DNA from: Enterobacteria phage T6
Sequence record: MH550421
Reading direction: 5' to 3' (one strand)
DNA length: 64,000 bases
Below, in pieces: positions 24,241 through 53,951 of the stretch (positions are counted from its first letter, which is position 1; each line of letters opens with the position of its first letter). Made by a program: the position numbers and the translations under genes. The notes beneath the pieces were generated by a model that ran no database searches, was not told the DNA's origin, and worked only from the letters and a program-made list of their open reading frames with translations.

Positions 24241-24301
24241 TTTGTGTTCCTCATGTTATGTCAGTAAGACTATTATAACACAACATAAGGAACTTGTAAA
24301 C
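24241..24301 (-). promoter_or_regulatory. Candidate early promoter (GTTTACA-N17-TATAAT) with leader for the alt.-3-like gene
   Basis: Minus strand GTTTACAAGTTCCTTATGTTGTGTTATAATAGTCTTACTGACATAACATGAGGAACACAAAATG; matches T4 early promoter consensus. Confidence 0.55.
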
Positions 24302-32442: not shown

Positions 32443-32808
32443 TTAAATATCAAATTCGTTAAGAACTACATCAAAGATTGCTTCCAAGTGCTCAGGTTTA
32501 GCTCTGTTACTCAGAATATGACGAATCCAAGTTTTAACTAAGAGTTTACGATTAGCACCATTCCAGCAAGGATGAGTCCCTAAATCGCGTTCACGAAAAT
32601 CATCATCCAGAGCGATTTTAAAGTTGGAACCTTCCATTGTGATTGAAACCGTGATACCGTTTTCAAATCGCATATAAACGTAGTTAGGAGTCATATACTG
32701 TTCAATTTCGCATACTGATCCATTTTGATGTTTCCAAAGGCAGATGGTATCAATAGAACCTGCAATACCATTAGAAACATATTTACGTTCAAAGTTGATG
32801 TAGTTCAT
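32443..32808 (-). CDS. Hypothetical protein
   Basis: Track start 32820 is TTG; ATG at 32808 (MNYINFERKY...) with GGAG Shine-Dalgarno. Confidence 0.5.
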   Translation of the reverse strand: MNYINFERKYVSNGIAGSIDTICLWKHQNGSVCEIEQYMTPNYVYMRFENGITVSITMEGSNFKIALDDDFRERDLGTHPCWNGANRKLLVKTWIRHILSNRAKPEHLEAIFDVVLNEFDI

Positions 32809-32833: not shown

Positions 32834-32874
32834 GGTACAGGTATATAATATCATGTCCTGTACCAAAGTAAACA
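32834..32874 (-). promoter_or_regulatory. Candidate early promoter (GTTTACT-N17-TATTAT) with -10 enclosed by inverted repeat
   Basis: Arms GGTACAGG / CCTGTACC flank the -10; upstream of ORF 32443..32808. Confidence 0.45.
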
Positions 32875-33232: not shown

Positions 33233-33265
33233 ATAATACTATCACAAAGGAACCGTACTGTAAAC
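33233..33265 (-). promoter_or_regulatory. Candidate early promoter (GTTTACAG -35)
   Basis: Minus strand GTTTACA then about 17-19 nt then TATTAT upstream of ORF 32876..33208. Confidence 0.4.
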
Positions 33266-33297
33266 AAAACTTTATGCAATCTTTGGAAAATAAAAAA

Positions 33298-33315
33298 GGA
33301 CTCCCGAAGGAGTCC
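33298..33315 (-). terminator. Intrinsic terminator (minus strand)
   Basis: GGACUCC-UUCG-GGAGUCC hairpin followed by UUUUUUAUUUU on minus transcript. Confidence 0.6.
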
Positions 33316-33320
33316 TCAAC

Positions 33321-36014: not shown

Positions 36015-36247
36015 AGTACGCCATACACCCTTTGTGCTTCAACTAATCCATCAAAATCCAGTTTAAGATGCGATATTTGATCGCCATCACCTGGATTCAC
36101 AATTACTAATACTGAACGAGGAGTTTCAGTAATAACACGAACCGATGTTTCAGGAAATCGTTCAGAAACCTTATTTACTAATTCCTGTGCAAATAGTTTA
36201 ACTTTTTCTTGGAATTCTTTAACAGTAATTGGTTTTTCACTTAGCAT
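36011..36247 (-). CDS. Hypothetical protein (cd.2-like)
   Basis: 78-aa ORF. Confidence 0.5.
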   Translation of the reverse strand: MLSEKPITVKEFQEKVKLFAQELVNKVSERFPETSVRVITETPRSVLVIVNPGDGDQISHLKLDFDGLVEAQRVYGVL

Positions 36248-36768
36248 GTTGATCCCAGCTCCTTACTTTCAACGTTTTTAACTAATTTGACAGAAACTAA
36301 TTCAGCATCTTGAGTAATCATTACCGGACCTTCTTCATACTCTTCAAGATATTCTAGAGCTTTCTTTTTAGCTTCTTCCTTCGTATCAGTTTGAGCATAG
36401 ATATAAAACATACAACCAGTAATACCTACTACTTTCCACTTAATTTCTTTATCAGTTTTAATTTCAAATTTACTGACAGAATCATCTTTTTGAACTTCTT
36501 CGAAAAAAGAATATTCTAACATATAAGCAATTGAAAATAACGGGCTAACTTTATAGGATTCGCCCATTACATCAACAGCTTTATACCAGCAGTCATCAAT
36601 TTCGCGTTTAATGCTAATAACATTCTTTGCAGGGTCAATTTTTACTTTAAATGAATTTTCCCCAATAAACTGGGCAATTCGTTTATTAGCCCCGCAAGTT
36701 TCATTAAAAATATCTTTATAGCCAGTTTTAAAGCGATAAACCTTATCTTCTTCAAACCATTCGCTCAT
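36241..36768 (-). CDS. Hypothetical protein (cd.3-like)
   Basis: 175-aa ORF. Confidence 0.5.
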   Translation of the reverse strand: MSEWFEEDKVYRFKTGYKDIFNETCGANKRIAQFIGENSFKVKIDPAKNVISIKREIDDCWYKAVDVMGESYKVSPLFSIAYMLEYSFFEEVQKDDSVSKFEIKTDKEIKWKVVGITGCMFYIYAQTDTKEEAKKKALEYLEEYEEGPVMITQDAELVSVKLVKNVESKELGSTC

Positions 36769-36789: not shown

Positions 36790-36828
36790 GGTAGAGCTAT
36801 AATATCACAACTCTACCGTAAAGTAAAC
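36790..36828 (-). promoter_or_regulatory. Candidate early promoter (GTTTACT-N17-TATTAT) with -10 enclosed by inverted repeat
   Basis: Arms GGTAGAG / CTCTACC flank the -10; upstream of ORF 36241..36768. Confidence 0.45.
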
Positions 36829-39748: not shown

Positions 39749-39809
39749 AAAGTCCTCATGTTATGTCAGTAAGACTACTGTAACACAACAAGAGGGACTT
39801 GTAAACAGC
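39749..39809 (-). promoter_or_regulatory. Candidate early promoter with leader for alc (paralogous to element at 24241..24301)
   Basis: Minus strand GTTTACAAGTCCCTCTTGTTGTGTTACAGTAGTCTTACTGACATAACATGAGGACTTTATG; about 90 percent identical to the alt.-3 upstream element. Confidence 0.5.
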
Positions 39810-46050: not shown

Positions 46051-46362
46051 TTACACCGCCATCTTTCCTTTAATTGGCGGGTGAGATACATAGTTGTTAA
46101 GAACAAAATTATGCGGCTTTGCGAATTGACTCAACCAAAATACCTGCGATTCTGTGTTCCATTCATCAAATTCATCTGGAAATTTTAATTGTAATTCGCA
46201 TAAATCCATAGGTTCACGACGTAAAATTTCTTTACATTGTTCTACGTGATTCATATAGATATGAGTATTACCACCAGAAAATATCAAATCTCCTGGAATA
46301 AGATTACACATCTTAGCTGCAATATGAACTAACGCAGCGTATGATGCAATATTAAATGGTAG
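46051..46362 (-). CDS. td: Thymidylate synthase, exon 2
   Basis: Exon begins CUACCAUUUAAUAUUGCAUC directly after intron terminal AUG; encodes 103 aa ...LPFNIASYAALVHIAAKMCNL... to stop. Confidence 0.9.
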   Translation of the reverse strand, partial: LPFNIASYAALVHIAAKMCNLIPGDLIFSGGNTHIYMNHVEQCKEILRREPMDLCELQLKFPDEFDEWNTESQVFWLSQFAKPHNFVLNNYVSHPPIKGKMAV

Positions 46363-47378
46363 CATTATGTTCAGATAAGGTCGTTAATCTTACCCCGGAA
46401 TTATATCCAGCTGCATGTCACCATGCAGATCAGACTATATCTCCAACTTGTTAAAGCAAGTTGTCTATCGTTTCGAGTCACTTGACCCTACTCCCCAAAG
46501 GGATAGTCGTTAGGCATTTATGTAGAACCAATTCCATTTATCAGATTTTACACGATAAGTAACTAATCCAGACGAAATTTTAAAATGTCTAGCTGCATCT
46601 GCTGCACAATCAAAAATAACCCCATCACATGAAATCTTTTTAATATTACTAGGCTTTTTACCTTTCATCTTTTCTGATATTTTAGATTTAGTTATGTCTG
46701 AATGCTTATGATTAAAGAATGAATTATTTTCACCTGAACGATTTCTGCATTTACTACAAGTATAAGCAGAAGTTTGTATGCGAACACCGCACTTACAAAA
46801 CTTATGGGTTTCTGGATTCCAACGCCCGTTTTTACTTCCGGGTTTACTGTAAAGAGCTTTCCGACCATCAGGTCCAAGTTTAAGCATCTTAGCTTTAACA
46901 GTTTCAGAACGTTTCTTAATAATTTCTTCTTTTAATGGATGCGTAGAACATGTATCACCAAACGTTGCATCAGCAATATTGTATCCATTAATTTTAGAAT
47001 TAAGCTCTTTAATCCAAAAATTTTCTCGTTCAATAATCAAATCTTTCTCATATGGAATTTCTTCCAAAATAGAACATTCAAACACATTACCATGTTTGTT
47101 AAAAGACCTCTGAAGTTTTATAGAAGAATGGCATCCTTTTTCTAAATCTTTAAAATGCCTCTTCCATCTCTTTTCAAAATCTTTAGCACTTCCTACATAT
47201 ACTTTATTGTTTAAAGTATTTTTAATCTGATAAATTCCGCTTTTCATAAATACCTCTTTAAATATAGAAGTATTTATTAAAGGGCAGTCCTACAATTTAG
47301 CACGGGATTGTCTACTAGAGAGGTTCCCCGTTTAGATAGATTACAAGTATAAGTCACCTTATACTCAGGCCTCAATTA
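46363..47378 (-). mobile_element. Group I self-splicing intron in td (1016 nt) carrying the I-TevI ORF
   Basis: 5' exon ends ...UUGGGU, intron starts UAAUUGAGGCCUGAGUAUAAGGUGACUUAUACUUGUAAUCUAUCUAAACGGGGAACC and ends ...CUGAACAUAAUG; 1016 nt as in T4 td. Confidence 0.9.
46510..47247 (-). CDS. I-TevI: Intron-encoded GIY-YIG homing endonuclease I-TevI
   Basis: 245 aa; MKSGIYQIKNTLNNKVYVGSAKDFEKRWKRHF...; inside the td intron. Confidence 0.95.
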   Translation of the reverse strand: MKSGIYQIKNTLNNKVYVGSAKDFEKRWKRHFKDLEKGCHSSIKLQRSFNKHGNVFECSILEEIPYEKDLIIERENFWIKELNSKINGYNIADATFGDTCSTHPLKEEIIKKRSETVKAKMLKLGPDGRKALYSKPGSKNGRWNPETHKFCKCGVRIQTSAYTCSKCRNRSGENNSFFNHKHSDITKSKISEKMKGKKPSNIKKISCDGVIFDCAADAARHFKISSGLVTYRVKSDKWNWFYINA

Positions 47379-47927
47379 ACCCAAGAAAACATCTACTGAT
47401 CGTTGATACCACTGCAAATCCAAATAGCCGTTACGCACATTAAACTGATAGAACATATGACAAGGCGGTAATGCCATATATTTAAGTTCAGCTGGATTCC
47501 ATGCAGAAACAATTTGACGCCTATCATTTGGCAATTTTTTAATACGATCAACAACTTCTATAATTTGGTCTACACCGCCAAAATCGCGCCATTGTTTTCC
47601 ATAAATTGGACCAAGTTCACCGCTATGGTATCCTAAATCTTTTGCTTGATTTTCGTAATTTTCATCCCAGACTGTTTTGCCTTGGATTAACGAATCATGC
47701 TGAATTAATCGTAAATCATTGACATTTGTGCTTCCTGATAAAAACCATATTAGCTCAGCAATGCAAGCTTTCCAGGCGAGCTTCTTAGTTGTTACCGCAG
47801 GAAAACCTTTAGTTAAATCCCAACGTAATTTAGTACCGAACAAAGCAATTGTTCCTGTGCCTGTTCGGTCATCGGTTTCGTAGCCATTTTCAAAAATGTC
47901 TTTAATTAAATCTTGGTATTGTTTCAT
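47379..47927 (-). CDS. td: Thymidylate synthase, exon 1
   Basis: 183 codons MKQYQDLIKDIFENGYETDDRTGTGTIALFG...; exon 1 + exon 2 = 286 aa. Confidence 0.9.
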
Positions 47928-49775: not shown

Positions 49776-49878
49776 TTTATTCTCCTTAGCAAGCTTTAAT
49801 CAAAAGATATAAACAAACCAACATAACTGCTGCCATAATATAAGGTGCGAACATTTTCTTTTCTCCATTAGTTTTGAT

Positions 49879-49914
49879 AGGGTAATAGTATCACACTACT
49901 ACCCTGTTGTAAAC
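49879..49914 (-). promoter_or_regulatory. Candidate early promoter (GTTTACA-N17-TACTAT) with -10 enclosed by inverted repeat
   Basis: Arms AGGGTA / TACCCT flank the -10; located in 138-nt intergenic region. Confidence 0.45.
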
Positions 49915-50617: not shown

Positions 50618-50647
50618 ATAGTACCATGGAAGAACAAGGATGTAAAC
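50618..50647 (-). promoter_or_regulatory. Candidate early promoter (GTTTACA-N17-TACTAT)
   Basis: Minus strand GTTTACA then 17 nt then TACTAT, just downstream of gene 32 terminator. Confidence 0.4.
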
Positions 50648-50677
50648 AGTTTTGTGAAAAAATTTTGAAATAAAAAA

Positions 50678-50695
50678 GGGGACCTCTAGGGTCCC
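50678..50695 (-). terminator. Intrinsic terminator after gene 32
   Basis: GGGGACC-UAGA-GGUCCCC hairpin followed by UUUUUUA on minus transcript. Confidence 0.7.
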
Positions 50696-50718
50696 CAATT
50701 AATTAGTAATATAATCTA

Positions 50719-53889: not shown

Positions 53890-53951
53890 ATGAACCTCGT
53901 TCAATTAGTGAGATTTCTATTATATACTATCTAAATCTTAAAGTAAACAGG

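Follow-up and report, generated by a model that had tools for sequence, protein, structure and literature searches.

The window analyzed here is a stretch of 64,000 nucleotides from Enterobacteria phage T6 (sequence record MH550421). A position in the window equals the position in the T6 genome (AP018814/NC_054907) minus 95996; a 6-kb piece around the first two of the sites described below matches this genome with 100% identity. When the annotations of T6, T4, and PST are combined, all genes in the region of the three sites are found on the minus strand, and in three intergenic gaps a promoter sequence is present whose −10 element is bracketed by an inverted repeat. Site 1 (32834..32873, minus strand) lies in the gap between the genes 30.8 and 30.7 and consists of the −35 element GTTTAC (32873–32868), the 5′ arm GGTACAGG (32864–32857), the −10 element TATTAT (32850–32845), and the 3′ arm CCTGTACC (32841–32834), with a loop of 15 nt between the arms; the Shine–Dalgarno (SD) sequence GGAG (32818–32815) and the ATG of 30.7 (at 32808) follow. 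Site 2 (36790..36828, minus strand) is the ortholog of the T4 early promoter Pe133295 and is located directly 3′ of cd.3. It comprises GTTTAC (36828–36823), the 5′ arm GGTAGAG (36817–36811), TATTAT (36804–36799), and the 3′ arm CTCTACC (36796–36790) with a loop of 14 nt, and the downstream gene starts with the ATG at 36768. Site 3 (49879..49914, minus strand) occupies the gap between frd.2 and frd.1, with GTTTAC at 49914–49909, the 5′ arm AGGGTA at 49905–49900, the −10 element TACTAT at 49890–49885, the 3′ arm TACCCT at 49884–49879, and a loop of 15 nt. At all three sites the stop codon of the upstream gene abuts or overlaps the −35 element; at site 3 the stop codon TAG of frd.2 overlaps the G of GTTTAC. 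Near-identical sequence is present in T4 at sites 1, 2, and 3.

A preliminary description of this DNA had reported three such modules on the minus strand, each with a perfect inverted repeat whose arms differ from site to site. Reading of the sequence confirmed the coordinates, the perfect Watson–Crick pairing of the arms at all three sites, and the differences between them. Two details have to be qualified. The distance given as exactly 17 nt after GTTTAC(A/T) is correct for sites 2 and 3 (GTTTAC-N18) but is 16 nt at site 1 (GTTTAC-N17), and the −10 element lies in the loop as long as only Watson–Crick pairs are counted, whereas at sites 2 and 3 the stem takes in the −10 element when the sequence is considered as RNA with G·U pairs. 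The conserved "loop core" of that description corresponds to the extended −10 (TGn) and the −10 element of the T4 early-promoter consensus, which reads GTTTAC(N14)gtggTAttaT (Miller et al. 2003, as quoted in the annotation of the site-2 ortholog of another phage).

Judged by their sequence, the three sites are T4-type early promoters. Each of them has GTTTAC preceded by an A/T-rich region and, after a spacer of about 17 nt, TAnnnT preceded by TGn, and the motif GTTTAC-N16-19-TAYTAT is matched four times in the window where 0.13 matches are expected. The early-type assignment had been made before from the letters of the DNA, and it agrees with the annotation of site 2 in T4 under the name Pe133295 and with independent annotators who call its ortholog a T4 early promoter. 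In T4, position 133295 coincides with the central A of the 3′ arm (CTCT-A-CC), which is equivalent to position 36792 of the window. If the number in the promoter name denotes the start site, transcription would begin with the A at 36792 within the 3′ arm, and the start site thus appears to be inside this arm. With such a start the RNA made from the promoter itself would be unable to form the hairpin; the 5′ untranslated regions of the promoters' own transcripts have a minimum free energy of 0.0 at all three sites. A literature search for mapped transcription start sites or 3′ ends in T4 and T6 located no such paper.

Variation of the sites in related phages

Protein-anchored searches for the loci yielded 6–14 relatives per site. 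At site 1 the arms are constant while the loop and the flanks diverge, and in more distant relatives the arms extend to 11–12 bp (TTTGGTACAGGT/ACCTGTACCAAA). At site 3 the pair AGGGTA/TACCCT is replaced in relatives by GGGTTAT/ATAACCC and by GGTCTAT/ATAGACC, that is, both sides have changed and the pairing is kept. Single changes in orthologs are of the G·U type, namely A to G in one ortholog and C to T in three. Besides the old T4 entry X03007.1, another 418 phage records contain a match to the hairpin of site 2. According to the T4 GenBank record the 14-nt loop of this site (T4 133300–133313, L002 7301–7314; window 36797–36810) had earlier been reported as its inverted complement. A natural invertible switch was considered and is improbable, as X03007.1 is the one entry of the phage records searched that the inverted form matches over its full length; the other hits to the inverted loop are the reverse complement of the normal hairpin. 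The inverted loop in X03007.1 probably arose as an artefact of sequencing through the hairpin.

The genes next to the promoters vary as well. A gene of 175 aa which is homologous to PST ORF213 (36241–36768, minus strand) is present in T6 and PST but not in T4. The insertion lies between cd.2 and the promoter of site 2, and the sequence ceases to be identical to that of T4 at the SD. At site 3 the neighbors of the cassette vary from phage to phage, and in some phages an inserted gene has displaced it. Seven relatives have another coding sequence behind frd.2 and no promoter between the two, and in two of these relatives a promoter/hairpin cassette of the site-3 type reappears 3′ of the extra gene. 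Directly after site 3 and before frd.1 we noted an open reading frame of 22 codons (49786–49854, minus strand) with a strong GGAG ribosome binding site, coding for the hydrophobic peptide MFAPYIMAAVMLVCLYLLIKAC. The records of T6, T4, and PST have no coding sequence annotated in the gap between site 3 and frd.1 that holds it, and in some relatives it is absent and the promoter directly precedes frd.1.

Complementarity specific to each promoter

Within the window, inverted repeats accompany these promoters more often than random sites. When the same search box is used throughout, 6.3% of random window positions have a hexamer that is bracketed by a perfect repeat of at least 6 bp; for repeats of at least 7 bp the figure is 2.2%, and for those of at least 8 bp it is 0.8%. 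Among the strict GTTTAC-N17/18-TAnnnT sites of the window, six of eight, all on the minus strand, are bracketed by a repeat of at least 6 bp (binomial P ∼1.5e-6).

A larger set was taken from the whole assembled genome of T4 and comprises 39 early-type promoters that have an SD and a start codon downstream. When the upstream half of each promoter is joined to the downstream half of the same promoter, the RNA folding energy averages −13.18 kcal/mol, as compared to −7.86 kcal/mol with swapped partners, and the mean of the own pairs was reached by none of 5000 permutations. The swap control leaves composition and consensus unchanged, and hence the complementarity is a property of the individual promoter. 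A strong promoter-spanning hairpin is present at about 21 of the 39 T4 promoters.

The offset of the 5′ arm varies between the cassettes, and covariation analysis in fixed columns (RNAalifold, pair counting) was therefore dropped in favor of the swap and cross-partner controls. The cross-partner control is based on a metagenome scan which is blind to the arms: only GTTTAC, TGATACTAT, and ATCAA were fixed, and both arms were left free. Within the 53 distinct cores obtained, 13 carry in their own spacer a perfect 6/6 reverse complement of the six bases after the −10 element. With the spacers of foreign cores the same match is found in 0.38% (P ∼3e-20). Six different complementary arm pairs occur in these cores, and most of the cores without an arm match have CTCC or TTCCTC in the spacer, that is, an anti-Shine–Dalgarno arm. 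A scan of IMG/VR with GTTTAC-N14-15-TGATAYTAT was used as a source of extra sequence only; among the matches listed, most are chance occurrences in unrelated contigs. Selection on arm complementarity, which had been suggested on the basis of the three sites, is supported by the folding of own against swapped halves in T4, by the six arm pairs, and by the compensatory changes in the relatives.

Folding of the read-through RNA

In the RNA that reads through from the upstream gene both arms are present. Compared to shuffled sequences, the fold of site 1 has z = −2.5. At sites 2 and 3 the stem has 12 bp, includes the −10 hexamer, and contains three and two G·U pairs, respectively (z = −4.5 and z = −3.2 against shuffles). 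Outer helices of 3–6 bp are found beyond internal loops, and the GUUU of the −35 element pairs with a downstream AAAC. The SD is unpaired with a probability of 0.68–0.81 in the read-through RNA of the three sites and of ∼0.7–0.8 in both types of transcript. Thus, a hairpin which sequesters the ribosome binding site was rejected for the three sites, as the SD is accessible in the read-through RNA as well as in the promoter's own RNA. An intrinsic terminator was likewise rejected, as the stem is not followed by a T/U-run (the sequences behind it are GCAATTAA, AAAACAAA, and ATCAAAAC) and as the terminator scan called none of the three. An Rfam scan at the gathering threshold matched no family anywhere in the window. 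The window also contains a thymidylate synthase which is annotated as two pieces with a homing endonuclease gene in between (46051–47927, minus strand) and which has the td intron arrangement known from T4, yet the Rfam scan is blank here, too.

Folding of the other early-type promoters indicates that the spacer arm is used in two ways: its partner is either the stretch right after the −10 element or a stretch which includes the SD of the next gene. The first class comprises the three sites described above and the T4 promoters 73939, 73572, 70359, 66498, 65799, 57990, 20612, and 7215. To the second class belong the window promoters 33265, 24301, and 39806 and the T4 promoters 166807, 62797, 53943, 8218, and more. 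At the promoter 33265 (33236..33265, minus strand) the spacer sequence TTCCTTTGT pairs with the SD-containing sequence ACAAAGGAG in the read-through RNA only, and the probability that the SD is unpaired is 0.00 in this RNA versus 0.91 in the promoter's own transcript; a canonical terminator is located just upstream (33317–33296, minus strand). The promoter 24301 (24272..24301, minus strand) has a hairpin of ∼19 bp which reaches from the spacer to the SD (GAGGAAC; fold z = −4.3), with unpaired probabilities of 0.00 in the read-through RNA versus 0.14 in the own transcript. Upstream of rnlA, the promoter 39806 (39777..39806, minus strand) is a paralog of the 24301 cassette, and its SD is occluded in the read-through RNA as well (0.03 versus 0.75). 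A further early-type promoter (53919..53948, minus strand) has the weak bracketing repeat AGATTT/AAATCT, and its RNA fold is not significant (z = +0.5).

The promoters of a third group lack both kinds of hairpin and have a canonical terminator in front of them. As a contrast case within the window (50618..50696) we describe an early-type promoter without bracketing repeat (50647–50618, minus strand), which follows the intrinsic terminator GGGGACC-CTAGA-GGTCCCC with its T-run (50696–50678, minus strand). One terminator of the pair 33296–33317 and 50678–50696 has a UUCG tetraloop (GAGGACTCC-TTCG-GGAGTCCTT), and similar UUCG-loop terminators are present upstream of several T4 early promoters. A canonical terminator at most 90 nt upstream is found for 8 of the 39 early-type promoters of T4. 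Only one of these eight has a strong promoter-spanning hairpin, as opposed to 20 of the 31 promoters without a terminator (Fisher p = 0.015; Mann–Whitney p = 0.03), and since the comparison includes just eight promoters with a terminator and a threshold that was set post hoc, this anticorrelation is supportive rather than decisive.

The two strands of the DNA do not behave in the same way. In T4 the gain of own over swapped partners is −5.40 for the sense strand and −3.57 for the antisense strand (paired Wilcoxon p = 0.002). In addition, we counted wobble pairs in those parts of the helices which are outside of the fixed promoter bases, with G·T and A·C equally allowed as placeholders. In helices with at least eight Watson–Crick pairs there are 31 G·T versus 7 A·C (p = 1e-4) and in helices with at least seven pairs 42 versus 22 (p = 0.017); with at least six pairs, where chance helices are dominant, the difference of 55 versus 44 is not significant, all counts including related sequences and the class in which the SD is paired. 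Bases that are constant in the promoter, namely TGn and the T residues of the −10 element, account for part of the sense-strand excess of G·U pairs. The excess of G·U pairs, the anticorrelation with terminators, and the apparent start within the 3′ arm lead us to favor a hairpin that acts in the sense-strand read-through RNA. G·T pairs fit a single-stranded hairpin of the non-template DNA strand, too, and the strand bias falls short of a strict proof for RNA.

Possible role at transcript boundaries

The three sites are T6 members of a published kind of cassette termed PeSL (promoter-early stem–loop), which the preliminary description had not recognized, and the finding as such is sound and largely known. 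A PeSL is an intergenic arrangement in which a strong early promoter with AT-rich sequence upstream is combined with a stem–loop and with the SD and start codon of the next gene (Arbiol et al. 2010, PMC2839356; Comeau et al. 2014, PMC4122927). PeSLs are repeated many times per genome and adjoin indels and gene swaps (PMC2839356; PMC4122927). In T6, too, the gap that separates the stop codon of one gene from the SD and start codon of the following gene holds a stem–loop in or beside an early promoter, there are many copies (8 strict sites in the window and 39 in T4), and rearrangements are adjacent, namely the extra gene at site 2 and the exchanged neighbor at site 3. The PeSLs of phi1 and RB49 mostly have their stem–loop between −35 and −10 or over the −10 element, and G–T pairs are drawn in the stems; one phi1 stem–loop (PeSL211/210) reduced lacZ expression like rrnB T1, and PeSLs mediate gene shuffling (Arbiol et al. 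2010, PMC2839356). However, the stems of phi1 and RB49 are G/C-rich (GGGG...CCCC), whereas those of T6 and T4 have 6–8 bp (12 bp with G·U pairs) and no U-tract. The terminator role, which has been published for a G/C-rich phi1 stem–loop only, may thus not be transferable to the T6 and T4 stems.

For PST and T4 the PeSL promoter has been given as TTTACW-N17-TAYWAT (Comeau et al. 2014, PMC4122927), and with respect to the promoter a figure legend of the same paper places the PST stem–loops "just upstream". This wording suits the terminator–promoter pairs 50696–50618 and 33317–33236 of the window, not a geometry in which the −10 element is bracketed. Elements of the internal-protein (IP) loci of T-even phages (Repoila et al. 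1994), as summarized in PMC2839356, are analogs of PeSLs on T4 early promoters with weaker, AT-rich stem–loops of variable size. In our scan the T4 promoters 65413, 65799, 66498, 73572, and 73939 from the region of ipI, ipII, and ipIII have the same architecture; in that summary, however, the elements are described for the IP loci only. The passages searched in two T4 reviews contain no mention of hairpins that span a promoter. What our analysis adds is modest: the evidence for the sense-strand read-through RNA, the division into boundary and SD-occluding hairpins, and the apparent trade-off with terminators.

With a probability of about 0.6 we suggest that the hairpin is a transcript-boundary element in the read-through RNA, a reading that is based on the free SD and on the lack of a U-tract at the three sites. 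Part of the spacer (about −27 to −20) is complementary to the sequence that directly follows the −10 element, up to about the start site. An RNA polymerase starting from the promoter itself would begin in or just past the 3′ arm and would give an unstructured, A-rich leader. The read-through RNA from the upstream gene would hold both arms and would form a stem–loop immediately after that gene, which would then be the boundary element of the upstream message. Its biochemical role we can only infer: it might be a 3′ barrier by which the upstream cistron is stabilized once the leader has been cleaved or transcription has terminated within it, it might be a weak attenuator, or it might fold away the ribosome-free spacer. 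The hairpin would stand in for the canonical terminator that is found before other early promoters, and the cassette would be the T-even form of the PeSL and also a portable recombination module.

Such an element would have features in common with intrinsic terminators and with stabilizing stem–loops at 3′ ends, since it is located directly after the stop codon and since it and canonical terminators tend to be mutually exclusive before T4 early promoters. It differs from intrinsic terminators in that the T/U-run is missing at the three sites, in its AT-richer stems, and in that the terminator scan does not call it. In the T4 genes e, soc, and I-TevI, a hairpin hides the ribosome binding site in a long transcript, and a promoter inside the hairpin gives rise to a short transcript which can be translated. 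These classical cases use late or middle promoters. For mobE, a hairpin at the ribosome binding site is cited in a passage of a T4 review. The early promoters resemble these cases in that the promoter is inside the hairpin and only the read-through RNA folds, and at 33265, 24301, and 39806 the SD is occluded; at the three sites with bracketed −10 elements, in contrast, the SD is outside of the stem and accessible.

The early RNase III sites of bacteriophage T7 separate the cistrons of a polycistronic early RNA. In the same way the hairpins of T6 could be processing sites for an endonuclease, with RNase III attacking the stem itself or with the stem as a guide for RNase E or RegB. The extended folds with their 12 bp and outer helices, in which GUUU of the −35 element is paired with AAAC, would be compatible with this role. 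In addition, a GGAG ribosome binding site is followed by A-rich sequence at sites 1 and 3, which is the type of target given for RegB/S1 in a passage of a T4 review. However, RegB cuts the SD and not the hairpin, so that its action merges into the model of a 3′ barrier. Typical substrates of RNase III consist of about two helical turns, that is, ∼20 bp of mostly continuous double-stranded RNA, and the stems of 12 bp and outer helices of 3–6 bp with internal loops between them are shorter and more interrupted. No Rfam family is matched, and cleavage data for these sites were not located in the literature. Among the possibilities named in the preliminary description we favor a hairpin in the read-through transcripts, and we regard its use as a processing site as unlikely; for RNase III in particular, stems of at most 12 bp with short, interrupted extensions lend no support to such a use.

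Alternatively, the repeats could act at the level of DNA as a cruciform, as a hairpin of the non-template strand, or as the target of a structure-specific protein, and influence the firing or shut-off of the promoter or recombination. In fact the repeats are perfect as DNA at the three sites. The virion RNA polymerase of phage N4 recognizes promoters with DNA hairpins which have stems of 5–7 bp and loops of 3 nt. The T6 sites also combine an inverted repeat with a phage early promoter, but they are ordinary promoters of the sigma-70 type with a loop of 14–15 nt. Extrusion of a cruciform is unlikely for a weak DNA hairpin with a center of this size. As DNA the hairpins of the three sites amount to −5 to −7 kcal/mol for each single strand, which is unfavorable for extrusion, and G·T wobbles are tolerated on the sense strand only. 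The cruciform that had been proposed is therefore not sustained, and a palindrome for a sequence-specific binding protein is disfavored by the arm sequences, which differ from site to site. In addition, promoters that follow a terminator mostly have no repeat, and this is hard to explain if the repeat served a promoter function. The passages of the two T4 reviews state that the mechanism by which early promoters are shut off is not understood, which would leave room for a DNA structure, and the authors of the PeSL study speculate on a DNA-binding recombination protein (PMC2839356). Taken together, action at the DNA level appears improbable, and a non-template-strand DNA hairpin, formed by the same arms and contributing to the shut-off of early promoters, is a far-fetched idea for which we see very little chance.

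It could further be argued that the hairpin has no function of its own and that the promoters are recombination-prone modules with which the repeats hitch-hike or in which they arise by template switching at quasi-palindromes. The cassettes are in fact found at the boundaries of indels and between different neighbors, and the loop of site 2 was once reported as inverted. On the contrary, the complementarity is kept as the arms change (six arm pairs and the compensatory changes), the arms of site 1 are more conserved than their flanks, and the inverted loop occurs only in X03007.1 among the phage records searched. We consequently give little credit to repeats without function. That the repeats are chance matches or side effects of the promoter consensus, from which the inner G·U pairing of TGTG with TATA does follow, is refuted by the background (6.3% against six of eight), by the swapped partners, which retain the consensus yet lose ∼5 kcal/mol, and by the cross-partner control (0.38% against 25%).

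If the hairpins are boundary elements, this would explain how dozens of small early cassettes of T-even phages can be arranged head to tail with very strong promoters of their own and without canonical terminators between them, and how cassettes can be exchanged between phages without disturbing their neighbors. The complementarity of the arms would then offer a handle on the distinction between immediate-early and delayed-early RNA and on the stability of early mRNA, both of which are incompletely understood according to the reviews. It could also be of use for annotation, namely in calling early promoters and in predicting which genes depend on a promoter of their own. A more general rule is conceivable, though we hold it to be somewhat doubtful: in T-even genomes every early promoter which can receive upstream transcription would have the spacer arm of a hairpin that forms in read-through RNA only, that either marks a boundary or occludes the ribosome binding site, and that is interchangeable with a canonical terminator. 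If this rule were true, each early cassette would be expressed mainly from its own promoter, would be insulated from its neighbors, and would be freely portable.

Two further arrangements were observed among the early-type promoters. At the T4 promoters 167086, 50973, and 2458 (minus strand) a small hairpin is contained wholly within the spacer; 50973 and 2458 share the sequence CCACAAGGATGTGG, and 167086 has the variant CCACAAGGACCGTGG. This third geometry matches the PeSL subclass with a stem–loop "between −35 and −10". In the window, the stretches 24250–24301 and 39755–39806 (minus strand) are near-identical over ∼50 nt which comprise promoter, leader, and SD, and their T4 equivalents are found at 136336 and 123093. 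These dispersed direct repeats at the rnlA promoter and the promoter 24301 could be substrates for recombination.
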